This document shows positions 8,696 through 62,311 of a DNA stretch of 64,000 nt, one piece after another. Position 1 is the first letter of the stretch. Every line of letters begins with the position of its first letter. The DNA is taken from assembly GCA_030726915.1 (NCBI GenBank), contig JANRCR010000041.1, positions 4,262 through 68,261 on the forward strand. Reading direction: 5' to 3'. This DNA comes from Candidatus Nanopelagicales bacterium (lineage in GTDB: Bacteria; Actinomycetota; Actinomycetes; S36-B12). The translations under genes were made by a program, and so were the position numbers. The notes beneath the pieces were generated by a model, which had not been told where the DNA came from, ran no database searches, and was given only the letters and a program-made list of their open reading frames with translations.

Positions 8696-8776
8696 GCCCC
8701 GACCCTAGGACATGGGTGGACTCGGTATCGTCCCCGTGACACATCTGCCATCTGCCGCATGAGCCGAGAGGGAACA

Positions 8777-39815: not shown

Positions 39816-39960
39816 GCAGCGACTGTACCGGCGGAATCGGGTCAGCACCCACGAACACTGCCGAAGTGGCGATTGCAACGTATTCCGCGACATTCCCATC
39901 TCCCGAGCGCATTTCAATACTTCGAATTGCCCGAGGTGGGACGGAGCACGAGCTCCACCG

Positions 39961-40962
39961 CTAGGTGACGGTCACGTCCAACCAGGATGTCGTGTCGGGT
40001 GGTCCCAGGGCGTAACGCAGGGATATCTCATCACCCAACTCGACGGCAATCGCACCGAAGGTGAACCACGGAAGACCGGTGCGCGATACGCACAGCGGCG
40101 CTGCCGAGAGGCACGCTGTGAGTTGAGCGAGCGAAGTGACATCCAGGGAGGCGTCGAGCACGTCCTGTCGGAGGAAGCTGGATGTCTCCGGAGACCCCAT
40201 CGCGGAATCAATATCGTCGGTGGCCAGCGGATGGTTTGCATGCCCGAATCTCGACCCTGGCGCCGCGGCAGGCACCGCACCCGCAGCCGAACACTCCAGG
40301 CTCGCGCTGCTCATGGAGCCCGACGCGTCACGTCCCACTATGGCGAAGTGCTGTCCCGACGCATGCGGAACCGACATCAGGAAGTGCACTGCGGCGCTCG
40401 CATCGGCCTGGGCGAGTGCCCCTCGCAGGACGAAGGCCACCGGCAGACCGGAGCGGCTGTGCCCCAGCATGGTGAGGGCATTGACGCAGATGGCAAAACC
40501 CGCGGTGGAGGCACCGCACAGGCCGATCATGCCGGCGGAGGTCAGCACCACGCTGGCATTGCCGTCGGCTGCCTCATTGCGCACCACCGCCTGGCTGCCA
40601 TCGAGCACCCGGTCGAGATCCATGGTCTGGCCGACCAGCGGTGGTGCTGCGATCGTGCTGCACGACTCGCGCAGGACCACCTCGGACCACCACCAGTGCT
40701 CGTCCATCAGGTTGTGTACGAGCACGTGCCTGTGTTTCACGCCCGCACCTTCAGCGATGCCGAGCAATTCCGCGTGGAGGTCGGGGGTGTGACGCGCTAT
40801 GGCTGACTCAAAATCATTGGCATCGATGAAGCGATCGACTTCGTGTGCTCCACCAAGATCCTCCACCACACGAGCGAGCACATCGCGGATCTCCACGCGC
40901 AACTGCTCACCGTGGGATCGACCACGCTCTCGACCCGATCCCATCACCGTCACCACCGTCAC
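39961..40962 (-). CDS. Peptidase C45 / acyl-CoA:6-APA acyltransferase-like Ntn hydrolase
   Basis: 333 aa. GSGRERGRSHGEQL... N-terminus and candidate nucleophile context RESCSTIAAP. Confidence 0.6.
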   Translation of the reverse strand: MTVVTVMGSGRERGRSHGEQLRVEIRDVLARVVEDLGGAHEVDRFIDANDFESAIARHTPDLHAELLGIAEGAGVKHRHVLVHNLMDEHWWWSEVVLRESCSTIAAPPLVGQTMDLDRVLDGSQAVVRNEAADGNASVVLTSAGMIGLCGASTAGFAICVNALTMLGHSRSGLPVAFVLRGALAQADASAAVHFLMSVPHASGQHFAIVGRDASGSMSSASLECSAAGAVPAAAPGSRFGHANHPLATDDIDSAMGSPETSSFLRQDVLDASLDVTSLAQLTACLSAAPLCVSRTGLPWFTFGAIAVELGDEISLRYALGPPDTTSWLDVTVT

Positions 40963-41893: not shown

Positions 41894-42325
41894 ATGACGG
41901 ACGAGCAGACCACCGACAGCTTCGGACTCACCCGACGCCAGGCCCTCGCGGCCGCAGCAGCCCTGTGTGGACTCGGCGCCGTCGTGGGTGCCTCGAGTGC
42001 CCAGGCTGCGCCCCGCGCCGGGGCGCTGCGGGTGCGGTTGTCCGCCTATCCGGCCCTGTCGAAGGTCGGTGGCGTGGCTGTGGTCGGCAACCTCGGCAGC
42101 ATCCCCGTGGCGGTGGTGCGCACAGGACGCACGAGATGTCGAGCATTCAACCGGCGCTGCCCCCACGCTGGTGCGACCGTGATTCCGCAGGGGTCCGGCT
42201 TTCTCTGCCCCGCGCACGGATCCGTCTTCACCAAGACCGGTGCACGTGTGTCGGGTCCCACACCCACGGGACTCATCCCGCTCAAAACTAAGCTGAGCAG
42301 GGGCCTTCTCACGATCACGGTCTAA
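41894..42325 (+). CDS. Tat-exported Rieske [2Fe-2S] protein
   Basis: Start is MTDEQ (ATG 41894). Tat motif TRRQALAAAAAL and Rieske ligands CPHAG...CPAHGS. Confidence 0.82.
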   Translation: MTDEQTTDSFGLTRRQALAAAAALCGLGAVVGASSAQAAPRAGALRVRLSAYPALSKVGGVAVVGNLGSIPVAVVRTGRTRCRAFNRRCPHAGATVIPQGSGFLCPAHGSVFTKTGARVSGPTPTGLIPLKTKLSRGLLTITV

Positions 42326-42366: not shown

Positions 42367-44160
42367 GTGCCCCGCCTTTCACGGACGAATCGTCGTGTGA
42401 TCGTGGGAGGTCTATCCATCGGGCTTGTCATCGGGCTGACCGGGCCCCTGGGCTCGGTGCTGTCAGTGGGCCCCCATCACAGCGCCGCCGCCGCAGTGCG
42501 GCCTAATGTGCTCCTGATCCTCACCGATGACCAGCGCGCCGGCACCCAGGTCGCGATGCCGACGGTCATGGACGAGCTCGTCGGGGCGGGTACGTCGTAC
42601 CCGAATGCCTTTGTCCCCACGTCCTGGTGCTGTCCCAGTCGCGTCAGCCTGCTGACCGGCAAGTTTGCCCACAACACCGGCGTCTGGGAAAACGCCTCAT
42701 CATCCGCGTGGGGCGCATGGTCCGCCTTTGCCAAGGGCGGTGAGGAGACCGATACCCTCGCCACCCGTCTGGATGCTGCGGGCTACCGCACCGGACTCTT
42801 CGGCAAGTACGTCAACGACGTGACGGACGTGGGCGAGGAGCTCCTGCCACCGGGCTGGGATGAGTGGAATGCCTTCCTGAGCGGCAACTACTCGCGCTAC
42901 CGCCTCTCGACAGACACCAGGCCCATCGTGGCGGAGCGCCGATACCTCACGGACGAACTCACCGACCGCACCGTTGACTTCATCGAGTCCACCCCTGAGG
43001 ACGAGCCGTTCTTCGCCCTCTATTCACCCTTCGCGCCGCACTATCCCTACGACCCTGGTCCCTACGCCGGAGCCACCCATCGCGCAGGCCTCCTCGATGA
43101 CCTGCGGGAAGCAACCAACTTCCCGTCCCCCTCGACTAATCAGGAGGACATGAGTTCCTATCCGCGGTGGATGGGCAAGCTCCAGGTCACGGATGAGTGG
43201 AACGTGGACAGGCGGCCGAACCCGGTCGGAAGTCTCACGGTCACCGACGTCGTCGAGCGACAGGCCGACACCCTCATGGGTGTCGACGCGGGGATCTCCC
43301 GCATGCTCACCTCACTGCGACAGACCGGCCGTCTGGACAACACCCTCATCGTCTTTGTCTCCGACAACGGCTACGCCTGGGGTGAGCACCGCCTCCAGGG
43401 CAAGAACACCCCCTACGACGTCTCGGTGCGCGTGCCGCTCATCATGCGCTACGACGGAGTCCTGGATGCTGGCGTCATTGATGATCGCGTCGTGGCCGCG
43501 AATGTCGACGTACACGCGAGCATCCTGCAGATGACCGGTGTGGAGCCGGCGCGCATCGATGGGATCAGCGTGCGTGACCCCCGTCCGCGCGACGGTGTCG
43601 TCATGGAGGCCATGCGATGGTCTGGTTGGCGCGGTCGTCCCGCCTACTGCGGCTATCGCACCGCTGACCGTCTCTTCGTCCGCTACAGCAACGGCGAGGA
43701 GGAGCTGTACGACTACACCGTTGATCCCTTTGAGCTGAACAACATCGCGAGCGATCCTGCCTACGCGACACAGCGCGCAGCACTTCACCGCGCCACACGT
43801 CAGGCCTGCGCGCCCACACCACCCGGCTTCGCCTGGGATTCCCGCGAGACTCGACTCAGACCACCCACGGAGGTCACCGCTACATGGAGCGGTGACCGCA
43901 AGGTCATCATCACGTGGCGGGCACCCTCCAGTGTCGGCAGAGTGCTGCCGACCTACCTGGTCTACGAGGGTCGCCGCCCGGTGGGGCGCCCTGTGTGCGC
44001 ACTCGAGTCGATCCGACTCACCCGCGGTCTCGCCTGCAGGGTCCAACTCAGGGAAGACCCGACGGCTGAGGGGGCGCGCACGCCGTGGTTCGTCGTGGTG
44101 GCCGTCAACGGTGACCAGCGTGCCGCTGCCCCGGCCGTGACGCCGGATCTTGGGGGCTGA
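42367..44160 (+). CDS. Cys-type sulfatase with C-terminal FN3-like domain
   Basis: 597 aa. Signal/TM, LILTDDQR, and formylglycine motif SWCCPSRVSLLTGK. C-terminal ~100 aa are beta-rich (TWSGDRKVIITWRAP). Confidence 0.85.
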   Translation: MPRLSRTNRRVIVGGLSIGLVIGLTGPLGSVLSVGPHHSAAAAVRPNVLLILTDDQRAGTQVAMPTVMDELVGAGTSYPNAFVPTSWCCPSRVSLLTGKFAHNTGVWENASSSAWGAWSAFAKGGEETDTLATRLDAAGYRTGLFGKYVNDVTDVGEELLPPGWDEWNAFLSGNYSRYRLSTDTRPIVAERRYLTDELTDRTVDFIESTPEDEPFFALYSPFAPHYPYDPGPYAGATHRAGLLDDLREATNFPSPSTNQEDMSSYPRWMGKLQVTDEWNVDRRPNPVGSLTVTDVVERQADTLMGVDAGISRMLTSLRQTGRLDNTLIVFVSDNGYAWGEHRLQGKNTPYDVSVRVPLIMRYDGVLDAGVIDDRVVAANVDVHASILQMTGVEPARIDGISVRDPRPRDGVVMEAMRWSGWRGRPAYCGYRTADRLFVRYSNGEEELYDYTVDPFELNNIASDPAYATQRAALHRATRQACAPTPPGFAWDSRETRLRPPTEVTATWSGDRKVIITWRAPSSVGRVLPTYLVYEGRRPVGRPVCALESIRLTRGLACRVQLREDPTAEGARTPWFVVVAVNGDQRAAAPAVTPDLGG

Positions 44161-46000: not shown

Positions 46001-46471
46001 CTACCGCGTCATCCGCTCGAGGATGGAGGTAAGGCGAAGTTGGTTGTAGCGCAGCACGAGGAAGAAGACGAGGTTGCCGACGAAGATGATGAGGAACCAC
46101 AGGAGGATCAACTGCCAGGGATTGAAGGGCACGAGCACAAGGAAGGTGAATGCCGCGATCACATGCACCCATTCACCACGTCGCACCTCGACGAGATAGG
46201 CACGCAGGCTGTCGACATCCATGCCGAAGAGGCTTGATTTGCTCGCGCCACCCAACCATGAGCCGCCCTCGGGAAGCCACCTGGCACACCACGGGATCCC
46301 CGACCGCCGATAGATCGCCACGCGATCCCAGCGCGTGAGCGTGAGGGGTCCCCAATCACGGGCAAACCACCGATCGGGGCAGCGGGGAGCGATGAGTCCA
46401 ATCAGCGCAGCAAGACCCACGAGGATCACCAGGTCGATGATCACGAGGCGGAGCATTGCGCCACCATCCAC
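46001..46471 (-). CDS. Membrane protein resembling the glycosyl-4,4'-diaponeurosporenoate acyltransferase family
   Basis: 156 aa. ...WFARDW...YRRSGIPWCARWLPEGGSW...VEVRRGEWVH...FNPW...LRYNQLRL follows the motif order of that family as remembered. Confidence 0.5.
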   Translation of the reverse strand: MDGGAMLRLVIIDLVILVGLAALIGLIAPRCPDRWFARDWGPLTLTRWDRVAIYRRSGIPWCARWLPEGGSWLGGASKSSLFGMDVDSLRAYLVEVRRGEWVHVIAAFTFLVLVPFNPWQLILLWFLIIFVGNLVFFLVLRYNQLRLTSILERMTR

Positions 46472-46600
46472 GTCGCCTCCCTGGTGACCAGGTAGGCAGA
46501 CTAGGGGAGCGGAGGGCTCAACACATGAGTGAGGCCGCGCTGTACGGCCATCTGGGCCCGCCCTCGCCGAGGCAGGGGCGCTCCAGGACTTCCCTTGGAC

Positions 46601-46789
46601 CTAGCCGCAGCCACAACCGCACCCGCCACCTCTGCGGACATACGGGTCGTCCTGGGCTACACCGGCGGGCCTTGTCTGCCGCGAACCACATCGTGCGCAG
46701 GTCCAGGATGTCGGCATACGTGCGCCGGACATCACCAGTGCGGGGAATGTGTGTTCGCATTCCCCGCACTGGATCAGATATACCGGCAA
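46601..46789 (-). CDS. FmdB-family zinc-ribbon protein with C-terminal Gly/Cys tail
   Basis: TTG start lies 4 nt after the upstream stop. (M)PVYLIQCGECEHTF...WTCARCGS...RRGGGCGCGCG has the CxxC...CxxC ribbon typical of FmdB-like proteins. Confidence 0.65.
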   Translation of the reverse strand: MPVYLIQCGECEHTFPALVMSGARMPTSWTCARCGSRQTRPAGVAQDDPYVRRGGGCGCGCG

Positions 46790-46793
46790 ATGA

Positions 46794-47900
46794 CTAGCCG
46801 AGGCGCTTGCGAGCCATTTCGGTGCCTGCGGCCAGGGCGTGCAACTTATCAATAGCGATGTAGCGCTGAAGGAGAATGAGTCCACAGTCAGTGGTCACTC
46901 CGAGACGCTCCGGCGGGATGAACTCGGCCAGACGCATGATCCGATCACACACTTCTTCTGCGGTCTCGGTAATGGTCGACTTCACATCGATCACTCCGGC
47001 CCAGAAATTGACGTTGTCCGGAAGCGGGTTGCTCTTAATGATGTCCAAGCCCGACAGATCATCGCTTCGACGTCCGCAATTCTCGAGATTGAGTACGTCG
47101 ATGTTGGCCTCATACGACTTCGGGATGACCGACGCGGTCGCTGAGGGAGCTTCGCCCTTGCGCTGAGTGAGGTCAAAGATCTCGCCCGCATCAGCGGTCT
47201 CATCCGGGTAGTAGGCAGGGGTTCCACCCCAGTTGCCCCAGCACACATGGACGATGATCTGGGCGTTCTGGACCCCCTGGACGGCCCGATTGAATGCGTC
47301 AATCGCCCACTCCTCGTAGAAGTACGGCCAGGTGAACTCATCCAACTGAATGAAGTCGATGCCGAGGGCATCAACTTCAAGGATGTCCTCATTGATCGCT
47401 GCCGCCATCGCCATCGCCCGATCGCGGGGGTCCTCGTAGTAGAGGTCGTTGGTGCACTGGGCAAGCACCTGCACGCCGGTGTACTGGATCTTGGTGGGCT
47501 TATTGGTCGCGCGCTTGAGCGCCTTCGCCTGCTCCACCATGATGCTGCCCCGACGCTTGAGCTCCTGCGTTAAGGTGCCTGCGTGCAGCCGGCTGTAGAT
47601 CGGGAAGCCAAGGTAGCCACCCTTCAAGTCGTAGCCTAGGCGACGCATGTAGTAGTAGACGGCTGCGTCCGCGTAGTTGTCGCCGTGAAGCCGGCCGTCC
47701 GAGATGATGTCTAGCCCGGCGATCTCCTGATCCTTGGCGATAGCAGCGGTCGCGTCCTCGAATGCCTCGCGAACGAAAGCATCCGGGGGCTCCTGGTCCC
47801 CGTGCCAGTCGCGGGCTGGACCCGCGTCCCACCAGCGTGGGTTGGGGTAATTGCCGACCATCGAGGTCGGGATGAGGATTTCCTTGTCTCCGACGCGCAT
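46794..47900 (-). CDS. etnE: Epoxyalkane:coenzyme M transferase-like enzyme (MetE-C / cobalamin-independent methionine synthase fold, Zn)
   Basis: 368 aa. MetE-type zinc ligands in context IIVHVCWGN (His-x-Cys) and GVTTDCGL (Cys). It sits in an operon with hydroxyalkyl-CoM dehydrogenase-like SDRs, next to a CoM biosynthesis operon and a 2-KPCC-like gene. Family fold is confident; the EaCoMT function is inferred from context. Confidence 0.72.
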   Translation of the reverse strand: MRVGDKEILIPTSMVGNYPNPRWWDAGPARDWHGDQEPPDAFVREAFEDATAAIAKDQEIAGLDIISDGRLHGDNYADAAVYYYMRRLGYDLKGGYLGFPIYSRLHAGTLTQELKRRGSIMVEQAKALKRATNKPTKIQYTGVQVLAQCTNDLYYEDPRDRAMAMAAAINEDILEVDALGIDFIQLDEFTWPYFYEEWAIDAFNRAVQGVQNAQIIVHVCWGNWGGTPAYYPDETADAGEIFDLTQRKGEAPSATASVIPKSYEANIDVLNLENCGRRSDDLSGLDIIKSNPLPDNVNFWAGVIDVKSTITETAEEVCDRIMRLAEFIPPERLGVTTDCGLILLQRYIAIDKLHALAAGTEMARKRLG

Positions 47901-48110
47901 CTGGTGCCTTCCCTTGATTGGGCGACCGTGGGTCGCACTTATGGGCCCTTTCGATCCCCGTTCCTACTGCGATAAACGTCCGCACCTGCGGGTACTCGCA
48001 CGCTAGCCCCGGGGGAGATCACCGACTACGTATGGTGGGGACGAAGTGCGGCGCGTATCCCTGTCCTGGCCGGGCGAACTTTCAGCGATTCCAGGACCGC
48101 AGCCCTTCCG

Positions 48111-50204
48111 CTAGGACGTCCACGTCGCTCGAGCGTCAACAGCGACCACCCCGTGTCCTCCCACGATGACGGGATTGAGGTCGAGTTCAATGAGGTTCGG
48201 GTGTGCCATCAGAAGGTCACCGACCGCGCAGATAAGCGGCGCGACATCCCTCGCCTCAACAGGCGATTCGCCCCGGACCCCGGCGAGAAGCCCGGCCGCT
48301 CGAGAGCGCTCAACGAGGGCGACGGCTGCCGCTTCATCCAGGGGAGCTGGAGCAAAGCACACCTCCCCGATCGATTCAACGAAGACTCCGCCGAGCCCAA
48401 GAGCCACGACGGGCCCAAAAGTCGGCTCGCGGAGTCCTCCGATGACCAACTCGACACCCGTGACCTGCCGTTGGATCGCCACAAGCGCACCGTCCACAAG
48501 CGCGAGCAGATCAGTCGCGGCCTCCGCGACAGCATCGATCGAAGACAGGGACACGCGTACACCGCCGACATCGGTCTTGTGTGACAGGTCCTTATGATCC
48601 ACCTTGGCCACAACCGGGAAGCCAAGGGACAGGGCCGCCTCTTCCGCCTCTGGCACAGTCGCACAGAACCGCGTCTCCACAAAAGGAATACGGTGCTCGG
48701 CAAGGAGTGCCAGCAGCCCCTGTCCACCCTGCGCCGAGGTCGCCTCCCCTGCTTTGCCGCCTCCGGTCGACCTAGCCACACGGTCCGGCTCGGGACGAGG
48801 TGGGCCCGCGGCGCCGCGAGCACCGAGGACGCCCGCGTAGCGGACTGCATGCCCCACGGCTCGCGCTGTGCGCTCAGGCCACTCAAGACACGGGATGCCC
48901 GCTTCCTGCAGGAGTGCCGCCACGGGCCAGGCTGACCTCCGCGCCACCCAACAGCAGTAGACGGGCACACGCACACCATCTGCTCTCAGGCGGTGTACTG
49001 CGGCGATGATGGCCCGGGCAACGTCAGCGTTCTCCGCCGATCGATGCAGCAGCACAGGGATCACGACGTCGACCTCACCGGAGCGCGCCACTTCATCAAT
49101 CACGGCGGGATACATTTCTACGAATCGTGTCCAGGCCGGTGTCACATCGACAGGGTTAGCCGAACTGGCATAGGTGGGCAGGAGCGACTCAAGTCGTGCC
49201 CGTAAACCGGGAGAGAACGGGGGCACCACGATGTCCTCTACTGAGAGTAGGTCGGCCAGCTCAGTGCCGGTACCTCCAGAGTTGGTAATGATGGCTGCGC
49301 GTGCGCCGCGCGGCACAGGCTGCAAGGCGAGCGCCTTTGCTGCGTCGAGCATCTCCAGTCCCGACCGCGCGACTGTGATGCCAACGGCAGTCATCACGTC
49401 ATTCCATGCGCGACGCTCCGCGGCCAGCGCACCGGTGTGTGACGCCGCAGCGCGAGCACCGGCCTCCGAACGACCTACCGCCGCCACGATCAATGGCTTT
49501 GCAGGGGTGGTGCGCCGTGCCACGTCGAGCAGGAGTTCGCCGTCAGCAATCGACTCAGCAAAAAGACAGATCACCCGCGTGCGATCGTCGAGGCGGAGGT
49601 AGTCGATGACCTCGGAATCATCTACGTCGCACCGGTTTCCCGAGGAGTAGGCGACGGCGAAGCCAACCCCTTCGTCGTCCGACATGGCGTTGAGGGCCAT
49701 CGCGTAGGACCCAGATTGGGTGATGATGCTGATGCCGCCACCCCCACGCGCAGCCCCGGTGGAGAGAGAGGCATTGAGCGGGAGGTCGCAGTTCTGCACC
49801 CCCAAACAGTTGGGGCCGACAACAAGGAGGTCCGCCTCTCGCGCAGCGTCGGCAATCTGGGTCTGGAGCCTTTGCCCCTCAGGGCCGGTCTCGGCAAATC
49901 CACCGCTCACGATGACGCACGCTCGGACGCCTACGGCGACGGCGTCATCAATCACTCCGGGCACCTTCGCCGCCGGCACAGCGATCACCGCGAGATCGAT
50001 CGGACCGGGCACGTCCCGCAGTGTGGGGTAGGCCGTCACGCCGTTGATCTCGGTCGCCGACCGGCTCACAGGCACACTCTCGCCCGGGAACGACTCAAGG
50101 TTGCGCCAGAGCACCCAACCCGGCGATCCCTCCGTGTTGGAGGCGCCTACGACCGCCACTCGCTGGGGGTCGAGAATCGCCCACAGCGGACGGGACGCCC
50201 GCAT
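48111..50204 (-). CDS. ADP-forming acyl/acetyl-CoA synthetase (fused CoA-binding + ATP-grasp)
   Basis: 697 aa. RVAVVGASNTEGSPG CoA-binding start and a C-terminal ATP-grasp domain. Start overlaps the upstream stop (TGATG). Confidence 0.85.
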   Translation of the reverse strand: MRASRPLWAILDPQRVAVVGASNTEGSPGWVLWRNLESFPGESVPVSRSATEINGVTAYPTLRDVPGPIDLAVIAVPAAKVPGVIDDAVAVGVRACVIVSGGFAETGPEGQRLQTQIADAAREADLLVVGPNCLGVQNCDLPLNASLSTGAARGGGGISIITQSGSYAMALNAMSDDEGVGFAVAYSSGNRCDVDDSEVIDYLRLDDRTRVICLFAESIADGELLLDVARRTTPAKPLIVAAVGRSEAGARAAASHTGALAAERRAWNDVMTAVGITVARSGLEMLDAAKALALQPVPRGARAAIITNSGGTGTELADLLSVEDIVVPPFSPGLRARLESLLPTYASSANPVDVTPAWTRFVEMYPAVIDEVARSGEVDVVIPVLLHRSAENADVARAIIAAVHRLRADGVRVPVYCCWVARRSAWPVAALLQEAGIPCLEWPERTARAVGHAVRYAGVLGARGAAGPPRPEPDRVARSTGGGKAGEATSAQGGQGLLALLAEHRIPFVETRFCATVPEAEEAALSLGFPVVAKVDHKDLSHKTDVGGVRVSLSSIDAVAEAATDLLALVDGALVAIQRQVTGVELVIGGLREPTFGPVVALGLGGVFVESIGEVCFAPAPLDEAAAVALVERSRAAGLLAGVRGESPVEARDVAPLICAVGDLLMAHPNLIELDLNPVIVGGHGVVAVDARATWTS

Positions 50205-51019
50205 CAGTGGAGTGCCACCTCGAAGGTGCGCTGCAACTCGCCGGGGTCGAACTCCGATCGGCGCACACCCAGCGGGTCAATCGCGCGCACGGCAGCGAGT
50301 TCAGCAGGGCTGGGCGGCTCGACAGTTCCCAGGTCCGATGCCACCTCGAATTCGAAGCCGGTTGAGCTGCGTACGTCGTCCTCCGTCACATCAGGCCACA
50401 TCTCACGCAGGCGAGCAATGCCTGAGCCGTCATAATCGAAGATTCCCAATTCCGTGACCAGCCACTGCGGGCCGCCGCCCGAGTATCCGAGAGCCTTGCG
50501 ATCACCGGCCGGGGTGACGTGGCCAATATCGGTGATGAAGTCGCACGAAGACACCAGGGTCCGTCCTGAGCGGTGACGAGTAGTCCACAGGGTGAGTTGA
50601 CCGATCGTCGCTGAGATGTTGCAACCGCCGCCACCTCCGCCCAATTTGACCTTCGGTCGATCCAGCGGCCCGACAGCTGTGACATTGGTGTTGCCGTATC
50701 CATCGATCTGACCACCAGACAGGAACATACGATCCACATCCCCTCGGGACGCTGCATCAAAGAACTCTTCAAATCTCATGCTGTAGGCAGCGCCCTGCTT
50801 GAGACTGTTGTCGTTGCTTGTCGGGGGGATAAAGGGAGGATCCGGGTTGATCGCGTACATCGCACCCTCGATCAAGAGCATGTCGGGAGCGTGCGTTCGC
50901 CGCGCAACGTGCATCGCCACCTGCGCGCAGGGGCTGCCGAACCCATGGAAGACAACCTCCCGGTCACGGATCGTGCGAGCCAAGGCCACGACGAACCACT
51001 CATCAATGGTGTACGTCAT
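50204..51019 (-). CDS. Family I CoA-transferase, subunit B
   Basis: Start is MTYTIDEW (ATG 51019, ATGA overlap with subunit A). Resembles glutaconate/3-oxoacid CoA-transferase beta subunits. Confidence 0.8.
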   Translation of the reverse strand: MTYTIDEWFVVALARTIRDREVVFHGFGSPCAQVAMHVARRTHAPDMLLIEGAMYAINPDPPFIPPTSNDNSLKQGAAYSMRFEEFFDAASRGDVDRMFLSGGQIDGYGNTNVTAVGPLDRPKVKLGGGGGGCNISATIGQLTLWTTRHRSGRTLVSSCDFITDIGHVTPAGDRKALGYSGGGPQWLVTELGIFDYDGSGIARLREMWPDVTEDDVRSSTGFEFEVASDLGTVEPPSPAELAAVRAIDPLGVRRSEFDPGELQRTFEVALH

Positions 51020-51924
51020 GCGAAAAGCCCCTTCCACGCATCGACTGATTCACTCCAGGTAGTGAGGCGCTCAAGTTCTGCAGAGCCCTGCCGATCTCGA
51101 TAGCCCGCCTCGTCGGTGCTGCGCACCCACTCGTCCAGATAGGACTCAAGGGATTCCTGCGTCCCAGCAGCTCGGATGTAGGCACCCGTGGCCGAGCGGT
51201 CATAGGCATAGTGCGGGTAACTCGATGCCGGGTGAGCACCAAATGGCACTTCGGCAACGCCCCTCACCAAGTGGGCCGGGATGGTGATTCCGCGCTCGAC
51301 CAACTCCTCGGTCGCCACGATCTTGTCTACCGTAGCGACAACCGATCGCGCGGCACTCGCGAAGTGTTCATCGAGTACGTACGGCTGCTCCATGTAGAGG
51401 TTGCCCCGGGTGTCCCCGAGCGGCGCGTGCAGTAGCGCGACGTCCGGGCGCAGCGGTGGAACCACGACGAGCACCTCCCCCGTGAAGGGGCAGGTCATCT
51501 CGGCGTACTCGGGGTGGAGGCGCCGCATGTCCGTGCCCTTGATACCCCTAACTGGCAGGAAGGGGACCCCCATCTCCGCAGCACGCAACTGCGTCAGGAT
51601 GGTGACGCAGCAACTCTCCTTTACCTGGATCGTGCCACTCTCCGCGGCCCTTCTGTAGGCAGGCGCGAGCCCGAAGTCCTGCTCAAAGCCCACGTAACTC
51701 TCCTCGCAGACAGTTATTGCACCTGCCGCTACGAGCATGTCGACGTCCAGGCTGTGCGCCGAGCCGACCACGTGCAGGTTCCTGCGACCCTGACGAATCA
51801 TCTCGCGTATCAGAGCCATAGGCAGGCGCGCGGAGAGGCCACCACCTAGGGCGACGACGTCGCCATCAGCGACCATCCCAGCCGCCGTGGAGAGATCGAC
51901 TCGCTTATCGGGATCCAGAAACAT
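51016..51924 (-). CDS. Family I CoA-transferase, subunit A
   Basis: 302 aa. DGDVVALGG... N-terminus typical of CoA-transferase alpha subunits. Confidence 0.8.
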   Translation of the reverse strand: MFLDPDKRVDLSTAAGMVADGDVVALGGGLSARLPMALIREMIRQGRRNLHVVGSAHSLDVDMLVAAGAITVCEESYVGFEQDFGLAPAYRRAAESGTIQVKESCCVTILTQLRAAEMGVPFLPVRGIKGTDMRRLHPEYAEMTCPFTGEVLVVVPPLRPDVALLHAPLGDTRGNLYMEQPYVLDEHFASAARSVVATVDKIVATEELVERGITIPAHLVRGVAEVPFGAHPASSYPHYAYDRSATGAYIRAAGTQESLESYLDEWVRSTDEAGYRDRQGSAELERLTTWSESVDAWKGLFA

Positions 51925-51954
51925 GTTCCTCCTCGCTCAGGGCCGACATCGGCG

Positions 51955-52734
51955 CTAGATCGTCGTCATCCCGCCGTCAATGCTGAGCACCGATCCCGTG
52001 ACGAAGGCAGCCTCATCACTCGAGAGATAGAGCGCCGCCTTTGCTATGTCCACCACATCGCCAAGTCGACCAATCGGGTACTTCGCGATCGTTATCGCAA
52101 GACCCTTCTGCAGGTCGCCCCCACCGCGGGCGGTGAGCATCGGCTCCATGAGAGGCGTGTAGACGGTCCCCGGAGCGATCGCGTTTACCCGGATCCCACG
52201 GGGGGCAAGGTCAACAGACATCGACCGCGTAAGGCTCGCAACCGCACCCTTGGCAGCGCAATACGCCGCGAAGTTCGGGATACCCACGAGCGCCGCCACA
52301 GAGGCCTGATTGATGATGGATCCCTTGCTCGCCTGCATCATCGACGGAACGACTGCTCGCGAGCAGAGGTACGTGCCCTTCACGTTGATGTCAAAGCAGC
52401 GGTCCCAGTCGTCTTCCTCAGCCACGTCGACGGCGCCCGTGCTCCCAATCCCAGCATTGTTGTACAGCACAGAGATGTCGCCGAACTCCGCGATGACCGC
52501 CGTGACTGCAGCGCGAACCTGGGCATCAACAGTCACATCAGTCGTCAGTGCCATAGCTCGCTGACCGGCCGCACGAATGCCGTCACTCACCTCGGCCGCG
52601 GCATCACCGTTGACATCGAGCACCGCTACGGCTGCTCCCTCCCGCGCGAAAAGTTCCGCCGAAGCACGTCCGATTCCCGAACCCGCGCCCGTGATCACGG
52701 CCACCTTGCCCTCTAGCCTTCCCGGCATCATCAT
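51955..52734 (-). CDS. SDR dehydrogenase; candidate second hydroxyalkyl-CoM dehydrogenase
   Basis: 259 aa. TGAGSGIGRA, NNAG and YCAAK catalytic motif. Functional label comes from operon context only. Confidence 0.6.
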   Translation of the reverse strand: MMMPGRLEGKVAVITGAGSGIGRASAELFAREGAAVAVLDVNGDAAAEVSDGIRAAGQRAMALTTDVTVDAQVRAAVTAVIAEFGDISVLYNNAGIGSTGAVDVAEEDDWDRCFDINVKGTYLCSRAVVPSMMQASKGSIINQASVAALVGIPNFAAYCAAKGAVASLTRSMSVDLAPRGIRVNAIAPGTVYTPLMEPMLTARGGGDLQKGLAITIAKYPIGRLGDVVDIAKAALYLSSDEAAFVTGSVLSIDGGMTTI

Positions 52735-52789
52735 TCCTTTCGCTCGTTGTCAGAAACTTCATCTTCTTGAGTTTCGATCGGTCACACAA

Positions 52790-53533
52790 TCACCACGATG
52801 ACCACCCACCGTCGATCACGATCGCCGAGCCGTTGGCGTAGGCCATGCGCCCTGAGGCAAGCAGTGCGACGGTGTCCGCGACGTCCTCCGGTTGAGCCAC
52901 ACGTCCGATCGGGACCATCGCCTCGACCTTGGCGCGCAACTCGGGCTGGTCGAGGCGCCACTGCGTCATTGGGGTCTCGACCATGCCCGGGCAGATCGCA
53001 TTCGATCGGATTCCCAGGGGGCCATAGTCGACCGCCACCGAGCGGGCGAACATCAGAGCAGCGCCCTTTGAGGTCGTGTACGCGCAGCGCCCGGGAAAGG
53101 CAATAAGGCCCGCCACCGAGGCAATAGTGATGATCTGGCCACTGCCCGCGGCAATCATCGAGGGCAGCAGGGACCTCGTGCACAGGAAGGGGCCCCTTAC
53201 GTTGACAGCAATAACGCGGTCGAACTCGTCGATGGGCGTTTCTCCCGCGCTCGTCGCCTGCTGCGATCCCGTAATGCCGGCATTGTTCACAAGGACGTCG
53301 ACATGTCCCAACCTGTTGAGGATGCGGCCCATGACGTCCTGGACATCGTCGGGATCGGTGACGTCCAAGGCAAAGTGGTGCGGCGACAGAGATCGCACAG
53401 ACTCGACGTCCAGATCCGTTGCCACGACCTGCATCCCCTCGGAGATAAGTCGTCGAACGCTTGCGCTGCCGATACCACCGGCCGCGCCGGTTACGACGAC
53501 GACAGGTGACTGATCCTCACTGGTCACTGTCAA
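52790..53533 (-). CDS. xecD: SDR dehydrogenase resembling R-2-hydroxypropyl-CoM dehydrogenase
   Basis: 247 aa. TGAAGGIGSA, NNAGI, YTTSKGA, and the C-terminal stretch CPGMVETPMTQWRLDQPELRAKV. That stretch closely matches the substrate-binding region of Xanthobacter R-HPCDH as I remember it; needs alignment to confirm. Confidence 0.65.
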   Translation of the reverse strand: MTVTSEDQSPVVVVTGAAGGIGSASVRRLISEGMQVVATDLDVESVRSLSPHHFALDVTDPDDVQDVMGRILNRLGHVDVLVNNAGITGSQQATSAGETPIDEFDRVIAVNVRGPFLCTRSLLPSMIAAGSGQIITIASVAGLIAFPGRCAYTTSKGAALMFARSVAVDYGPLGIRSNAICPGMVETPMTQWRLDQPELRAKVEAMVPIGRVAQPEDVADTVALLASGRMAYANGSAIVIDGGWSSW

Positions 53534-54855
53534 CCCCTTCCCCGGGCCAACACAGCAGCCTGCGCCGCCTGGATGAGTGGGTCGTAGACCGGTGAGTACG
53601 GCGGAGCATAAGCAAGGTCTAGCTCCGCGATGTCGTCAACAGTCATACCTACCTGAAGGGCAGCCGCCACCACATTGATGCGTTGAGCTACCCCGTCCCT
53701 ACCTACCAGTTGGGCACCGATCACACGGCCGTCCGGCTTGTGAACCAGGCGCACGATGATCGGCTCGGCTCCCGGGTAGTACTTAGCGCGGGACTTTGCC
53801 GTCACCTGAGTCGCCTCCGCGCGCCATCCGCGCGCGCGCGCCTCCTCAAGCGTGACGCCCGTGTGCGCGACGGTGAGATCGAAGACCTTGACAACCGCGG
53901 TGCCGACGACGCCCGCAAAGGTGGCTTCGCCACCTCCGGCGACGGTGCCTGCGACCCGCCCGGTCTTATTGGCTGCGGGGCCGAGTGGCACGAAGGCGGG
54001 TTCCCCGAGGACTCGATGATGCACCGCGATGCAGTCACCAGCGGCATAGACGTCCTCGGCGGAGGTGCGCATCTGCTCGTCAACGATGAGGGCTCCGTTG
54101 GGGAGCGCTGCCAAGTCGGACACAAGACCCGTCGAGGGACTTACTCCGACCGCGAGCACGACCACGTCCGTCGGGATAGTGCCACCGTCGTACTCCACGT
54201 CAATGTGGGAGTCATGGGAATGCAACGCCCTGAGTTCGGCATCCAAAAGCAGCGTGCAGTGACGCTCGGTTTCGGTTTGGATGATAGCGGCCACATCGGG
54301 GTCGACAGTCGTCATCACGCGGGATAGCCGATCCATGACCGTGACGTCGAGACCACATGCATGCAGGGCCTCAGCCATTTCCAGTCCGACGTACCCGGCC
54401 CCCACGATGACCCCTCGGCGTGCGGTTCCGAGTCGTGCACGGAGCTCAATGGCATCCTCGAGTCGCCGAACAGTCATGACACGGGGATCGTCAACGCCGG
54501 GGATCGATGGCACGATTGGCTGTGCACCAGCCGCGTACACCAGGGCGTCGTAACCCCACTCGGCTCCATCGCTATCGACCACGAGGTGCGCTTCCAGGTC
54601 GACCGAAGTGATCACGCTGTCGAGCCGCAGGTCAATGCGTCTGCGCTCGCGAAACTCCGCCGCGGGATAGGCGATAAGGCTCTCGGGGTCAGAGATCACG
54701 CCACCGAGGTAGTAGGGGAGCCCACATACCCCGTAGGACGGAAAGGGGCCTTGCTCCCACACGGTCACCTCGGCGGTGCTATCCGCGCGGCGCGCCGCTG
54801 AAGCCGCCGACATCCCGGCGGCCCCGCCTCCGATCACCACGATTCGCCGGGGCAC
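53530..54855 (-). CDS. Single-cysteine FAD/NAD(P)H disulfide oxidoreductase (CoA-disulfide reductase / NADH oxidase family)
   Basis: 441 aa, GTG start after GGAGGTG. VVIGGGAAGMSAA FAD fold, single redox Cys context SYGVCGLPYY, second Rossmann VIVGAGYVGLEMAE. 4-nt overlap with the downstream SDR. Confidence 0.8.
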   Translation of the reverse strand: MPRRIVVIGGGAAGMSAASAARRADSTAEVTVWEQGPFPSYGVCGLPYYLGGVISDPESLIAYPAAEFRERRRIDLRLDSVITSVDLEAHLVVDSDGAEWGYDALVYAAGAQPIVPSIPGVDDPRVMTVRRLEDAIELRARLGTARRGVIVGAGYVGLEMAEALHACGLDVTVMDRLSRVMTTVDPDVAAIIQTETERHCTLLLDAELRALHSHDSHIDVEYDGGTIPTDVVVLAVGVSPSTGLVSDLAALPNGALIVDEQMRTSAEDVYAAGDCIAVHHRVLGEPAFVPLGPAANKTGRVAGTVAGGGEATFAGVVGTAVVKVFDLTVAHTGVTLEEARARGWRAEATQVTAKSRAKYYPGAEPIIVRLVHKPDGRVIGAQLVGRDGVAQRINVVAAALQVGMTVDDIAELDLAYAPPYSPVYDPLIQAAQAAVLARGRG

Positions 54856-55087
54856 GCCACCTCCAAAGCCTTGAACGACCGCCCATCAGGGCGATCGTCT
54901 TGACCCTCCCAGGGGGAAGGTGGGAACTCTATGACCGCTTGGGGCTAAGTTCCACGGTTTCTTCGGCCCTTCAGGACGGCACAATCGGTTGTCAGCTCGC
55001 CTAATATTCTCGACACACCGCATGTTGTCGCCTCATAAAGGGGACAACCGTGTACCCAAAGCCAAAGAAGGGGCGAACGACGTGCAG

Positions 55088-55879
55088 ATGTGGGAGCAGC
55101 CTCAGTTCCTTGACCTGCCGTCTCGTGACGCCAAGCCCCGTCGGCGCGGACTCACGCATGTCCTCGACAAGGGTCTCGATCTTGCGCGAACGGAGGCTTT
55201 TGTCGGCCAGTGCGCGCATCTCGTTGACATCGTGAAGATTGGCTGGGGCATCGGCTACGTCGACTCGACATTGCCGGCGCGCATTCGCGTCTATCGCGAG
55301 GCCGACGTCAGCGTCAGCCTCGGCGGAACGCTAGTGGAAGTCTGTGCGATGCAAGATCGCGTCCTGGAACTGCGTGACTGGGCACTGTCCCTGGGGGTCA
55401 CTGTGATGGAGGTATCCAACGGACTTCACCTCCTCGACCCGCAATCCAAGTCTGCGCTCATCCGCCTACTGAGCGAGGACTTCACCGTCGCGGCCGAGGT
55501 CGGAGACAAGGATCCGTCCCTTCCTGTAGTCGCTGACAAGTGGATTGAGGAAATGGAGCGTGATCTCGAGGCGGGCGCCACCTGGCTGGTCGCCGAAGGA
55601 CGCGAGTCAGGCACCGTCGGTATCTACTCAGCAGACGGTGGCGTGCGCGCCGATCTCGTGGAGAGCCTTGCGGACCGCATCACACTGGAACGAATCATTT
55701 TTGAGGCACCACTCAAGGCCCAGCAGACGTGGTTCATCGAACGTGGAGGCCCACAGGTCAACCTCGGCAACATCGCCCCTGAGGACGTGCTGCCGCTGGA
55801 GACTCTCCGCCTGGGGCTGCGGGCGGATACGGCAGTCTCCGTCGCCGCAATGATCACTCCCGAACGCGCCCTTCAGTGA
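55088..55879 (+). CDS. comA: (2R)-phospho-3-sulfolactate synthase (ComA / XcbA)
   Basis: KPRRRGLTHVLDKGL, DIVKIGWG, GGTLVE, EGRESG, IFEAPLKAQQTWFI and VNLGNI...LETLRLGLRADT are collinear with archaeal ComA. Start is ATG 55088 (alternative GTG 55082). Confidence 0.9.
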   Translation: MWEQPQFLDLPSRDAKPRRRGLTHVLDKGLDLARTEAFVGQCAHLVDIVKIGWGIGYVDSTLPARIRVYREADVSVSLGGTLVEVCAMQDRVLELRDWALSLGVTVMEVSNGLHLLDPQSKSALIRLLSEDFTVAAEVGDKDPSLPVVADKWIEEMERDLEAGATWLVAEGRESGTVGIYSADGGVRADLVESLADRITLERIIFEAPLKAQQTWFIERGGPQVNLGNIAPEDVLPLETLRLGLRADTAVSVAAMITPERALQ

Positions 55880-55891
55880 GAGGATGTGCGC

Positions 55892-56836
55892 ATGTCCCAC
55901 CGAGACGCGATCCAGCTACCTGAGCCCAACACGCTCACGCGTCCCTATCGCGGACTCTCGGTGCAGGAAGTGGATTTCGATCTGAGCAGTGAGCAGCGCA
56001 TTCTGGATTACATTCTCGGCCGGGAGGTCTACCGCCGGACCGAGTGGTTACTCCTGTCCAACCTCGATGCCCGAGCTCTCATCGAAGTGCGCAAGGAATC
56101 CTTTGACCCACTCTTCTCACCCGTAGTCACCGCGCGAGTACTTGCACTACCTGACAAGGTCGTATGGATCGAAGATCCTGACACCGACGTGGGCAATCCG
56201 ACACAACTCGCCATGACTGCCCTACGGCATGAGCGGGAAGGCGCAGATGCCTATGCCGTCCAAGGCAAGTTCGAGCACATCAATGTCATCTGGAGACCCC
56301 AGCCCGTGCGGGTTGTCGTTACTGAGGTCATCCCGCCAACGCCTGCCAAACTGCTCGAACTCGCCAAGACCGCGGTGGGATTCGACGAGGATCTCCCCCC
56401 TCTCGACCTCGTGCTTGACGCCGTCGATATACGCACGATGGCCGCAGACAACCCCTCGGATACATACCTGCTGCCCTGCCGCGGATCGGGAGTGGACCTG
56501 CCCGGCGAAGTCACATTCCTCGACACGCGCCCGGAGGAACGCCGGGACTGGACCCTGATTGGATGCGAGCGGTCAGTGCAGTTCCATCGTCACTTCTACG
56601 GCGACGAGCCAACCCAGGTCGACTTCTGCCCCAACCACCGGTCGGCCACTCTGGCGGAGGACACCCTTGTGCTCACCAAGTGCTGCCTACTCGAACGTGG
56701 TGTCGAGGTCCGTGGCAATACCGCCATCGTGCCGTGGGGGTCCAATCTTGACGAGGTGCGCCTCGCACTGCGGCTCATCACTGGCGTGGGGCCGTTACCC
56801 GAGCCGAAGCAGATCGGGTCTGCCCTGACCCCATGA
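55892..56836 (+). CDS. xcbB: XcbB-position protein, Cys-rich C-terminus, function unassigned here
   Basis: 314 aa, ATG 55892 after GAGAGGA. C-terminal cysteines LPCRGSG, LIGCERS, DFCPNH and TKCCLLE. It occupies the second slot of the comA-led operon. Confidence 0.5.
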   Translation: MSHRDAIQLPEPNTLTRPYRGLSVQEVDFDLSSEQRILDYILGREVYRRTEWLLLSNLDARALIEVRKESFDPLFSPVVTARVLALPDKVVWIEDPDTDVGNPTQLAMTALRHEREGADAYAVQGKFEHINVIWRPQPVRVVVTEVIPPTPAKLLELAKTAVGFDEDLPPLDLVLDAVDIRTMAADNPSDTYLLPCRGSGVDLPGEVTFLDTRPEERRDWTLIGCERSVQFHRHFYGDEPTQVDFCPNHRSATLAEDTLVLTKCCLLERGVEVRGNTAIVPWGSNLDEVRLALRLITGVGPLPEPKQIGSALTP

Positions 56837-58191
56837 GCGCCCACCTGAGCGACTCCGCGATCTACGGGCATCTGTGGGGTACTGACGAGACTCGCGCGAT
56901 GCTGTGCGACGAGGGGCGCCTGCGCTCGTGGCTCGACCTGCTCGCCTGCCTCGCTGAGGCACAGGCCGAGGTGGGCCTGGTACCCGCGGATGCAGCCCGG
57001 TCAATAACGGCCTCGGTGCACGACTGGATCCCCGACATCGCGGAGGTCGGACGTCTCACCCGAGAGACCGGACACTCAACACTTGGCTTGATCCGCTGCA
57101 TGCAGGAACGTTTGCCTGAGCACGCCCGAGAGTGGGTCTACTACGGAGCCACGGTGCAAGATCTGAGCGACACCTGGGCCGTCCTCGTCATGAGGCGCAT
57201 GACCAATATCGTCCTGCGGGACCTCCGCGTAGCCCGGAGCGCAGCGGCCGACCTCGCGCGGGTGCATCGAGCGACGATCATGTGCGGGCGCACGCACGGT
57301 CAGCCGGGTCTACCCATCACTTTCGGATTCAAGGCTGCGGTATGGGCGGATGAGATCGACCGCCATATCGGACGGATCGAGCACTCCCGAGAGGCCAGGG
57401 AGGTCATCCAACTCGGCGGTGGGCTTGGTTCCATGGAGTTCTGGGGTGAGGCTGCCGAGCCGATGGCAAGGGCCTTCGCCCGACGTCTAGACCTCGGCGT
57501 GCCCGTCATACCGTGGCTCACGTCCCGCGATCGCTTCGCCGAGTTCGTCACCCAGATGGCGATGATCGCCGCGACAATCGCCAAGATCGGCGACGAGGTC
57601 TTCGAACTCCAAAGAGCCGAGATCGGGGAGCTCCGCGAGCCGCTCTCCCCCGGCACAGTTGGAAGTATCACTATGCCGCACAAGCGCAATCCTGAGTGGT
57701 CCGAGCACGTGAGTTCGCTCGCGCGGCTCGTTCGAGTCAATGCCGATCTCGCCATCGAGGGGATGATCCACGGGCACGAGCGAGACGGCCGGGCTTGGAA
57801 GACAGAGTGGGTCGTTCTGCAGGAGACATGTCACTTCACCGCGACGAGCACAATGGCGGTGACGCGCATTCTTGACGGACTGGAGGTCAACGTTGCGCGC
57901 ATGCAGGCGAATCTCGACGCCCAACGTGGTTACGTACTCAGTGAGCCAGTCATGCGAGCGCTATCTGATCGAATGGGCAAGCACACAGCTCACCAGGTCG
58001 TCTACGAGGCCACGCTCTCGGGGGGTGAGCGCGGAGTAGACATGCGCACGGCCCTACGCGACGACCCGCGCCTTGCGGATATCCCCGATGCCGAACTCGA
58101 TGCCCTTCTCGATCCATCGCGAGCCCTGGGCTCCATATCCCGTTTCGTAGATGACGTCCTAGCTCGACTAGGAGACTCCACGGATGCCTAA
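56833..58191 (+). CDS. xcbC: Aspartase/fumarase-superfamily lyase (adenylosuccinate-lyase-like), XcbC-like
   Basis: 452 aa, ATGA overlap with the upstream gene. Superfamily signature loop GSITMPHKRNP. Confidence 0.7.
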   Translation: MSAHLSDSAIYGHLWGTDETRAMLCDEGRLRSWLDLLACLAEAQAEVGLVPADAARSITASVHDWIPDIAEVGRLTRETGHSTLGLIRCMQERLPEHAREWVYYGATVQDLSDTWAVLVMRRMTNIVLRDLRVARSAAADLARVHRATIMCGRTHGQPGLPITFGFKAAVWADEIDRHIGRIEHSREAREVIQLGGGLGSMEFWGEAAEPMARAFARRLDLGVPVIPWLTSRDRFAEFVTQMAMIAATIAKIGDEVFELQRAEIGELREPLSPGTVGSITMPHKRNPEWSEHVSSLARLVRVNADLAIEGMIHGHERDGRAWKTEWVVLQETCHFTATSTMAVTRILDGLEVNVARMQANLDAQRGYVLSEPVMRALSDRMGKHTAHQVVYEATLSGGERGVDMRTALRDDPRLADIPDAELDALLDPSRALGSISRFVDDVLARLGDSTDA

Positions 58192-62261: not shown

Positions 62262-62283
62262 GCCCACTCCTCCTGTACTGACA

Positions 62284-62311
62284 CTCTCCCGCGACGGATG
62301 ACGCGGGAGAG
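62284..62311. promoter_or_regulatory. Perfect 10-bp inverted repeat in the divergent 2-KPCC / aldehyde dehydrogenase intergenic region
   Basis: ctctcccgcg-acggatga-cgcgggagag lies 23 nt upstream of the 2-KPCC start codon. It could be an operator or a 5'-UTR hairpin. Confidence 0.4.

Follow-up and report, generated by a model that had tools for sequence, protein, structure and literature searches.

The 64-kb window analysed here (positions 4,262 to 68,261 of contig JANRCR010000041.1, from a Candidatus Nanopelagicales bacterium) carries a string of genes resembling known loci for coenzyme M (CoM)-dependent epoxide metabolism, in which a putative epoxyalkane:CoM transferase (EaCoMT) is followed by a small zinc-ribbon open reading frame (ORF), here called xecB, and not by genes for an alkene monooxygenase. 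The order on the minus strand is a CoA-disulfide-reductase (CoADR)-like flavoprotein, two short-chain dehydrogenases/reductases (SDRs), CoA-transferase subunits A and B, an acyl-CoA synthetase, the transferase, and the zinc-ribbon ORF; a CrtO-like membrane gene and then an amidinotransferase-like gene lie 3' of the last. An earlier interpretation made from the DNA letters alone (the sequence-only reading) had described the genes from the CoA-transferases to the membrane gene, and their places and minus-strand orientation were confirmed. All coordinates are those of the window; related contigs and loci carry labels such as L066, and the composite is the window joined to contig L084.

For comparison, one genome per GTDB species was scanned for XecA proteins at least 75% identical to that of the window, which gave 80 XecA-type loci; counts out of 81 include, in addition, the locus of Xanthobacter autotrophicus Py2. 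The hosts of the 80 loci comprise Pseudonocardia, Actinomycetospora, Kineosporia, Longivirga, Methylococcaceae, Alpha- and Betaproteobacteria, and many Acidimicrobiia, among them the sponge-associated Spongiisociaceae.

The Transferase and Its Zinc-Ribbon Partner

The 368-amino-acid transferase matches PF01717, the MetE catalytic fold, with 64.8 bits against a cut-off of 21. It shares 76% identity over 99% of its length with XecA of Py2 (Xaut_4865), compared with 45–48% for EtnE of Mycolicibacterium chubuense NBB4 and Nocardioides JS614 and about 30% for ordinary methionine synthases. We assign it to the XecA clade because of this difference between its identity to XecA and to EtnE, and sequence clustering likewise groups it with XecA-type proteins. 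Residues H218, C220, and C339, which we take to be the zinc ligands of EaCoMT (His-x-Cys ... Cys), are unchanged in an alignment of the window transferase, Py2 XecA, and NBB4 EtnE. The sequence accordingly predicts a zinc-dependent enzyme with the MetE fold, one of those that use the CoM thiol for epoxide ring opening: an XecA-clade EaCoMT inside an otherwise etn-like gene string. Many XecA-type loci encode a further MetE-fold paralogue, 25–31% identical to XecA (e.g., L006:7702, L011:7840, L014:7819, L055:7850), which sits between xcbE and comA or farther off; the window has none.

The etn-like character of the string is readily seen in the reference loci. On plasmid pMYCCH.02 of NBB4, two CoA-transferase genes and a synthetase gene are followed by etnE and etnABCD, the layout that the sequence-only reading had described, and the window does reproduce its upstream part, with CoA-transferase A and B and synthetase genes that match those of etn loci. 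In NBB4 and JS614 alike, CoADR-like, SDR, CoA-transferase A/B, and synthetase genes precede the transferase, and the window further shares with them, at 50–73% identity, a divergent comA-xcb operon, a gene resembling that for 2-ketopropyl-CoM oxidoreductase/carboxylase (2-KPCC), an aldehyde dehydrogenase gene, and EtnR1/R2-type regulators. It differs from both in the distance of its transferase from EtnE, in having no etnABCD after the transferase, and in the presence of the zinc ribbon. JS614 plasmid pNOCA01 has a second etnE (L002:19830-21112; 176–177 kb) that is interrupted by a frameshift; a DUF1097 gene, and no monooxygenase gene, comes next, and this etnE is preceded by the same string of CoADR-like, SDR, CoA-transferase, and synthetase genes as is found in the window.

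The start codon of the zinc-ribbon ORF falls 4 nt past the transferase stop codon. Its 62-residue product reads (M)PVYLIQCGECEHTF...WTCARCGS...GGGCGCGCG, with a CxxC...CxxC arrangement and a GCGCGCG tail. Directly after xecA in Py2 lies a 66-amino-acid hypothetical gene, Xaut_4866, which reads MPVYTIKCPDCGHVF...VWVCSQCKS...GGGCLCCGR and is matched by the window ORF with E=1.9e-10 (tblastn). We take Xaut_4866 to be the xecB of the original 1995 Xanthobacter sequence; a literature search for xecB, or for etnE with a zinc ribbon, returned nothing relevant.

Invariant in the family are C8, C11, P26, W29, C31, C34, and a C-terminal Cys, and an (H)P motif and a C-terminal CCG or GCGCG are also kept. 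The window protein stays below both curated cut-offs of the FmdB-family models TIGR02605/PF09723 (scores of 23.3 against 31.3 bits and of 29.5 against 34.4 bits) while most of its homologues have a precomputed PF09723 match, and for this reason it is classed, by sequence, as a probable divergent relative of FmdB-family zinc ribbons. With that family it has in common an N-terminal MPxY..CxxC...CxxC ribbon and a low-complexity Gly/Cys tail; P26, W29, the (H)P motif, the C-terminal CCG/GCGCG, and the linkage to xecA set the XecB group apart as a distinct subfamily. Relatives are named "hypothetical" or "zinc ribbon" among 5.8 billion protein clusters. The ORF was skipped in the public gene calls for the population (gene tables of L088–L092), likely on account of its short length and TTG start; homologues elsewhere are mostly ATG-initiated at the same position. 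It is nevertheless under purifying selection, with a pN/pS of 0.20/0.73 against L004 and five of seven within-population differences synonymous. In a Chromatiales metagenome-assembled genome (L064:1373-1588) a frameshift disrupts the N-terminal half of the ribbon ORF, possibly marking a pseudogene or an assembly error; in the close relative L062 the ORF is intact. A scan of 45.9–48.3 kb for sigma-70 promoters and intrinsic terminators found no sites, and the RNA fold 3' of xecB is no better than that of shuffled sequences (z = 0.1), both results being uninformative in a GC-rich genome.

The ribbon gene is present in 61 of the 81 XecA-type loci, and in every one of these it shares the strand and the gene string of xecA. 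It stands directly after xecA in 38 of these, after xcbC in 21, and after xcbE in 2; the position after xcbC, seen in Acidimicrobiia, is the end of an xecA-xcbA-xcbD-xcbE-xcbC series. Only 3–13 nt separate it from xecA in the window's own clade (Actinomycetota), and where xecA lies apart from the other CoM genes (L005, L007, L009, L010, L050, and L077), the ribbon stays with xecA. The loci without it (n=20) include three truncated contigs, and most of the others belong to one Pseudonocardia/Actinomycetospora subclade. No ribbon ORF was found in the two EtnE-type loci examined (NBB4 and JS614), both of which have xcb genes, nor was a hidden one present in the etnE-etnA gap of NBB4 or after the JS614 pseudo-etnE. 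A metagenome scan seeded by ribbon sequences alone gave 23 strong matches: all 21 that could be evaluated adjoin xecA (4 of them in the order ribbon-xecA), and the other 2 are at contig edges. The 52 weaker matches, generic ribbons of FmdB type, have no CoM genes in their vicinity. The ribbon is a conserved partner of XecA, tightly linked to it across phyla, and xecB is the most faithful neighbour that xecA has. The sequence-only reading was correct in seeing a 62-residue FmdB-like zinc-ribbon ORF, which is thus no mere filler after the transferase.

Absence of a Linked Oxygenase

The sequence-only reading had found no monooxygenase after the transferase, and a wider search bears this out. Subunits of soluble di-iron monooxygenases (SDIMOs) were absent from the 64 kb by tblastn with XamoABCDEF of Py2 and EtnABCD of NBB4, queries that cross-detect each other's systems in control loci. 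Pfam scans covering nearly all long ORFs, a few of which were left unmatched, detected no di-iron, copper, P450, AlkB, or flavin alkene monooxygenase. Contigs 99.9–100% identical to window positions 52444–64000 lengthen the sequence by 8.5 kb rightwards, and etnABCD-type genes were sought there too, in case they lay just beyond the window; besides small ORFs, the extension encodes MEDS and YcaO proteins and a PucR-type regulator, and no SDIMO. No oxygenase was detected over the 46.6 kb to one side of the transferase or the 26 kb to the other. A stand-alone 143-amino-acid Rieske [2Fe-2S] protein with a precomputed Pfam match is encoded at 41894–42325 (plus strand), outside the variable island described below and directly upstream of a sulfatase gene (42367–44160, plus strand); it is unrelated to XamoC by tblastn.

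The related loci look the same. An SDIMO lies within 10 kb in 2 of the 81, namely Py2 and L066 (one of the 80 genome loci), the flanks of the 80 loci amounting to 1.33 Mb and 51 of them having at least 8 kb on both sides. The SDIMO of L066 is divergent from xecA, and the xamo genes of Py2 are about 3 kb upstream of xecA; in no XecA-type locus is an SDIMO found 3' of the transferase. An oxygenase-free neighbourhood is the normal state of XecA-type loci, and the framing of the window as an etnEABCD locus from which the oxygenase is missing is not supported for a transferase of this clade. EaCoMT genes form two clades that differ in their neighbours, and so the lack of a monooxygenase next to the transferase should not be taken as evidence that genes were lost.

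When the unassigned ORFs of the 80 loci were clustered in search of a recurrent non-SDIMO oxygenase, no obvious alkene epoxidase emerged. The commonest unassigned family, present in 19 loci, is a luciferase-like oxidoreductase (339-amino-acid representative, L058:160-1179), followed by MEDS and PucR proteins. A similar gene annotated as F420-dependent occurs in the JS614 locus (L002:4944-5879). Neither the luciferase-like oxidoreductase nor the other recurrent unassigned families occur in the window.

A Strain-Variable Island

A lookup of the CrtO-like protein returned two kinds of contig from the same metagenome series, with and without adjoining CoM genes. In L088–L092 the CoM genes stand beside the CrtO-like gene; in L093, L094, and L095, which come from three different samples, a gene for the identical CrtO-like protein lies directly beside an 89-amino-acid ORF and the YcaO gene. 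Blastn against the composite joins window position 46581 to composite position 67606 in all three of these empty-site contigs. The variable block defined by comparing L093–L095 with L084–L092 is 21,024 bp long and runs from xecB through the PucR regulator, a 43-amino-acid CrtO-like remnant, and two small ORFs. It contains the transferase, the ribbon, the 2-KPCC-like reductase, the dehydrogenases, the CoM biosynthesis genes, and the EtnR1/R2-like regulators, so that a complete package for CoM biosynthesis and epoxide catabolism varies among strains of what the sample names suggest is a lake population. The sequence-only reading had proposed that a monooxygenase might have been lost, leaving a scar at 46.5–46.8 kb; the related contigs reveal at this position the edge of the presence/absence block. 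The membrane gene beyond it, which had been called unrelated, is indeed a CrtO-like gene outside the island.

Part of the CrtO-like 5' coding region, 72 bp long, recurs inside the right end of the island (98.6% identity by blastn to L084:13923-13994, composite 66366–66437), where it has abrupt boundaries and forms the 43-amino-acid remnant ORF; this duplication may be a recombination footprint or the result of gene conversion. The left 46 kb of the window is ordinary-looking chromosome, with genes for Kup, PntAB, an L,D-transpeptidase, and a UvrD-like helicase. An origin from a known plasmid was considered and rejected: megablast of 44–64 kb against plasmids matched only the JS614 aldehyde dehydrogenase gene, at 74%.

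The region 3–8 kb past the right end of the window holds the YcaO gene (660 amino acids) among at least six paralogous small ORFs of 79–100 amino acids with 85–97% DNA identity (L084:14382-19895; L093:207-5560), and the right island junction is just upstream of one of them. This set looks like a precursor array of the kind known for ribosomally synthesized and post-translationally modified peptides. The GCGCGCG tail raised the idea that XecB is a precursor peptide of the nearby YcaO enzyme. That idea was discarded, the YcaO gene being outside the island and present in island-free strains, and the ribbons of other lineages ending in CCG with no YcaO nearby. A second strain-variable site lies at about 39842–39962, between an AAT-like gene and an amidase gene, where L088 and L091–L095 carry some 3.7 kb (two PLD-like PLDc_2 genes and a deaminase-like gene) absent from the window and from L089 and L090.

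Predicted Pathway, Epoxide Source, and Role of XecB

The features of the locus are collected in Table 1. If the homologies hold, XecA would add CoM to a short-chain epoxide, and the two SDRs would oxidise the hydroxyalkyl-CoM adduct. The 247-amino-acid SDR keeps S142, R152, Y155, K159, and R196 (XecD numbering), presumably the catalytic Ser-Tyr-Lys and the two sulfonate-binding Arg of R-hydroxypropyl-CoM dehydrogenase (R-HPCDH); in the 259-amino-acid SDR, the signature positions expected for the S-specific enzyme (S-HPCDH) did not map. The 2-KPCC signatures examined are all retained in the XecC-type oxidoreductase (R56, C82, C87, H137, M140, M361, R365, F501, H506, and Q509), among which we assume the CxxxxC redox pair, the CoM-binding arginines, and the Phe-His dyad replacing His-Glu. 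This enzyme, the acylating aldehyde dehydrogenase (71% identical to its JS614 plasmid homologue), the CoA-transferase, the acyl-CoA synthetase (38% identical to its NBB4 homologue), and the CoADR-like flavoprotein (50–52% identical to the etn-locus homologues of JS614 and NBB4) would by homology lead to acetyl-CoA or acetoacetate, with release of CoM.

Table 1. Positions in the 64-kb window of the CoM locus, the neighbouring chromosomal gene, and the left island boundary
Feature	Position	Strand	Basis or remark
CrtO-like membrane protein, flanking chromosomal gene outside the island	46001-46471	-	PF18927
72-bp segment of CrtO-like 5' coding region	46381-46452		Duplicated inside the right end of the island
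Left island junction, 46581|46582	46572-46591		20 nt downstream of the xecB stop; empty-site contigs L093-L095
XecB-like zinc-ribbon ORF, 62 aa, TTG start	46601-46789	-	Homology to Py2 Xaut_4866
Putative XecA-type epoxyalkane:CoM transferase (2-hydroxypropyl-CoM lyase), 368 aa	46794-47900	-	PF01717, identity to XecA
ADP-forming acyl-CoA synthetase, 697 aa	48111-50204	-	Pfam CoA_binding_2, Succ_CoA_lig, ATP-grasp_5
CoA-transferase subunit B	50204-51037	-	PF01144; 73% identity to NBB4 homologue
CoA-transferase subunit A	51016-51924	-	PF01144; 61% identity to NBB4 homologue
SDR, 259 aa, candidate etn-type hydroxyalkyl-CoM dehydrogenase (XecE-like)	51955-52734	-	65% identity to NBB4 etn-type SDR, 46% to XecE
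SDR, R-hydroxypropyl-CoM dehydrogenase (XecD) type, 247 aa	52790-53533	-	49% identity to XecD
CoA-disulfide-reductase-like flavoprotein, 441 aa	53530-54855	-	TIGR03385, 405 bits, below cut-off
CoM biosynthesis operon comA(xcbB)-xcbA-xcbD-xcbE-xcbC	54989-60684	+	Divergent from the catabolic operon
2-Ketopropyl-CoM oxidoreductase/carboxylase (XecC)-type disulfide oxidoreductase	60681-62261	-	54% identity to XecC, 65% to NBB4 homologue
CoA-acylating aldehyde dehydrogenase, SauS-like, 475 aa	62444-63871	+	NF047625, 553 bits against a 600-bit cut-off

The divergent comA-xcbADEC operon, which has the same order as in the JS614 and NBB4 loci, would by homology make the CoM itself. ComA is recognized by PF02679, and XcbA (406 bits) and XcbD (651 bits) are above the NCBIfam cut-offs; XcbE (302 against 450 bits) and XcbC (386 against 575 bits) are best matches yet below them. 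The series comA-xcbA-xcbD-xcbE-xcbC is the bacterial CoM biosynthesis pathway (PMC9457059). Outside the island by 37 kb, a gene for a pyridoxal phosphate-dependent enzyme at 8330–9799 (plus strand) encodes a protein 38% identical to Py2 XcbE and is probably a housekeeping paralogue of the D-cysteine desulfhydrase or 1-aminocyclopropane-1-carboxylate deaminase family. The regulators just past the right end are 44–54% identical to EtnR2 and 46% identical to EtnR1, and the EtnR pair of NBB4 responds to ethylene oxide, not to ethylene (PMC11197473). Their counterparts here would probably sense the epoxide itself and so activate the island.

Among characterized systems, that of Py2 (xecA, Xaut_4866, xecC, xecD, xecE, and xcbA-E on plasmid pXAUT01) resembles the window in XecA, in the zinc-ribbon ORF after xecA, in the 2-KPCC homologue with all signatures, in the R-HPCDH homologue with both arginines, and in the five CoM biosynthesis genes. 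It differs in that the window genes are dispersed and not ordered xecABCDE; in that the window adds the etn-typical CoA-transferase, acyl-CoA synthetase, CoADR-like flavoprotein, and acylating aldehyde dehydrogenase; in the xamo genes, of which the window locus has none nearby; and in being on a proteobacterial plasmid, where the window is actinobacterial chromosome. Closer in the matter of the oxygenase are Methylohalobius crimeensis and about 10% of methanotrophs, in which an ethylene-induced XecA-like cluster occurs without an alkene monooxygenase (PMC11507031) and is read as serving epoxyethane detoxification (Toppings et al. 2024, PMC11507031). The M. crimeensis transferase is XecA-like (77% identity to Py2), and CoM biosynthesis and downstream genes form with it one laterally transferred cluster (PMC11507031). 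There, methane monooxygenase supplies the epoxide, whereas the window's host is an actinobacterium with no oxygenase seen in the searched region; moreover, the ORF after etnE in M. crimeensis is an SDR, and the related locus L082 has no zinc ribbon. Oxygenase-free CoM epoxide clusters are therefore already known, and the window locus is one of the Xanthobacter XecAB type. What is new here is the conserved XecB partner and the strain-variable island, both modest additions.

Taken together, the genes and their variation among strains make it probable, in our view, that window positions 46582–64000 and the 3.6 kb beyond constitute an accessory island for self-contained CoM-dependent epoxide consumption, without a monooxygenase. 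The island would never have carried one; the epoxide would be supplied by an unlinked or non-dedicated oxygenase or by the environment, and the module would serve to scavenge or detoxify epoxide and would be acquired or lost by strains in one piece. The sequence-only reading had listed, among its options, a pathway serving an epoxide not made by a linked oxygenase, and this option fits best, given the epoxide-sensing type of the regulators (PMC11197473) and the methanotroph precedent (PMC11507031). Exposure to ethylene oxide or propylene oxide is thereby suggested as an ecological pressure outside alkene degraders and methanotrophs, and the known spread of CoM in bacteria is widened.

Several points weigh against this interpretation. 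A dedicated alkene monooxygenase may lie elsewhere in the genome, and the activities and expression assigned to the organism are predictions from homology. No integrase or transposase was found among the island ORFs, and the island ends show no target-site duplication and no long terminal repeat, only a 9-bp offset match; the GC content of the island (62.8%) differs little from that of the flank (65.1%), and the direction of the event, gain or loss, we can only infer. The locus mixes propylene-type parts (XecA, XecB, and the R-HPCDH and 2-KPCC types) with ethylene-type parts (CoA-transferase, synthetase, and acylating aldehyde dehydrogenase), so that the substrate may be either epoxyethane or epoxypropane. 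As to XecB, its predicted structure shows a generic ribbon with a disordered tail and offers no functional lead. Some 17 evaluable XecA-type loci lack the ribbon, and both native and recombinant Py2 EaCoMT are said, from work of the Ensign laboratory, to be active as XecA alone; XecB is therefore not strictly essential.

The first of these points amounts to an alternative in its own right, namely that the organism is a true alkene assimilator in which the island is fed by a dedicated monooxygenase (SDIMO or copper membrane type) encoded at another place in the genome, as in Py2. The xamo genes of Py2 form a separate operon, and L066, a related metagenome-assembled genome, has its divergent SDIMO next to xecA. 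Marine assimilators of ethylene and propylene with pmo-like genes and EaCoMT are also described (PMC4036023, PMC6440738). Set against these precedents are the long oxygenase-free stretches on both sides of the transferase, the lack of a nearby oxygenase in 79 of the 81 related loci, the gain or loss of the island as a unit without an oxygenase, and the island-free strains in the same population, which suit an accessory trait. We regard an alkene assimilator as unlikely, and prefer a self-contained epoxide-consuming island.

Within that island, XecB would be a metal-binding accessory or subunit of XecA, acting in zinc delivery or active-site maintenance. We consider it a partner of XecA because it is linked exclusively to xecA, and not to the xcb genes, with tight gene spacing; judged by this association, its likeliest role is that of a metal-binding accessory or subunit, not that of a regulator. 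An AlphaFold model (mean pLDDT 80.7) gives a confident three-stranded ribbon over residues 1–45. Foldseek of the model against PDB returned nothing at E <= 0.001, the sub-threshold matches being generic zinc modules (MCM N-terminal domain, Sir2, and HypA), and a ribbon profile against PDB sequences gave only non-significant matches to rubredoxins and zinc-finger knuckles. These sequence and fold comparisons favour none of the roles considered for XecB. A bolder proposal, which we put forward tentatively and as rather less than an even prospect, is that XecB is an overlooked clade-specific metal-binding subunit or metallochaperone and that oxygenase-free XecAB islands are a widespread mobile epoxide-scavenging trait. 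If so, the trait would span freshwater and soil Actinomycetota, sponge-associated Acidimicrobiia, and others, and bacterial use of CoM would be far commoner than the usually cited "small number of bacteria."

Two other functions have been weighed for XecB. It could be a rubredoxin-like iron-binding redox protein that carries electrons for the pathway, for example to XcbA or to a disulfide reductase, and is no accessory of XecA: the second knuckle, PxxWvCxxCG, is similar to a rubredoxin motif, most of the weak PDB profile matches (E 0.05–0.1) are to rubredoxins, the C-terminal Cys pair is conserved, the gene ends the xecA-xcbA-xcbD-xcbE-xcbC string in Acidimicrobiia, and the physiological electron donor of the [2Fe-2S] reductase XcbA is unresolved (PMC9457059). 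We find this doubtful, since those PDB matches are non-significant, the EtnE-type loci examined have xcbA-E and no ribbon, and in loci that keep xecA apart from the xcb genes the ribbon accompanies xecA. Somewhat more doubtful again is a role in regulating xec gene expression, as implied by the label "FmdB putative regulatory protein" that some database entries bear and by the weak matches to FmdB family models; we know of no experimental backing for that name. The predicted structure contains no DNA-binding domain beyond the ribbon, dedicated MEDS and PucR regulators are already present, and a spacing of 3–13 nt after xecA better suits a stoichiometric partner.

Least credible of all, and in our judgement very improbable, is a decayed etnEABCD-type locus in which deletion of four monooxygenase genes left a scar at about 46.5–46.8 kb and a fortuitous small ORF: the order of CoA-transferase A, B, synthetase, and transferase is that of the NBB4 and JS614 etn loci, but the transferase belongs to the XecA and not the EtnE clade, NBB4 has no such ORF between etnE and etnA, the ORF is conserved across phyla under purifying selection, the supposed scar coincides with the cleanly joined edge of an island, and the xecA-xecB arrangement is the usual one among relatives.

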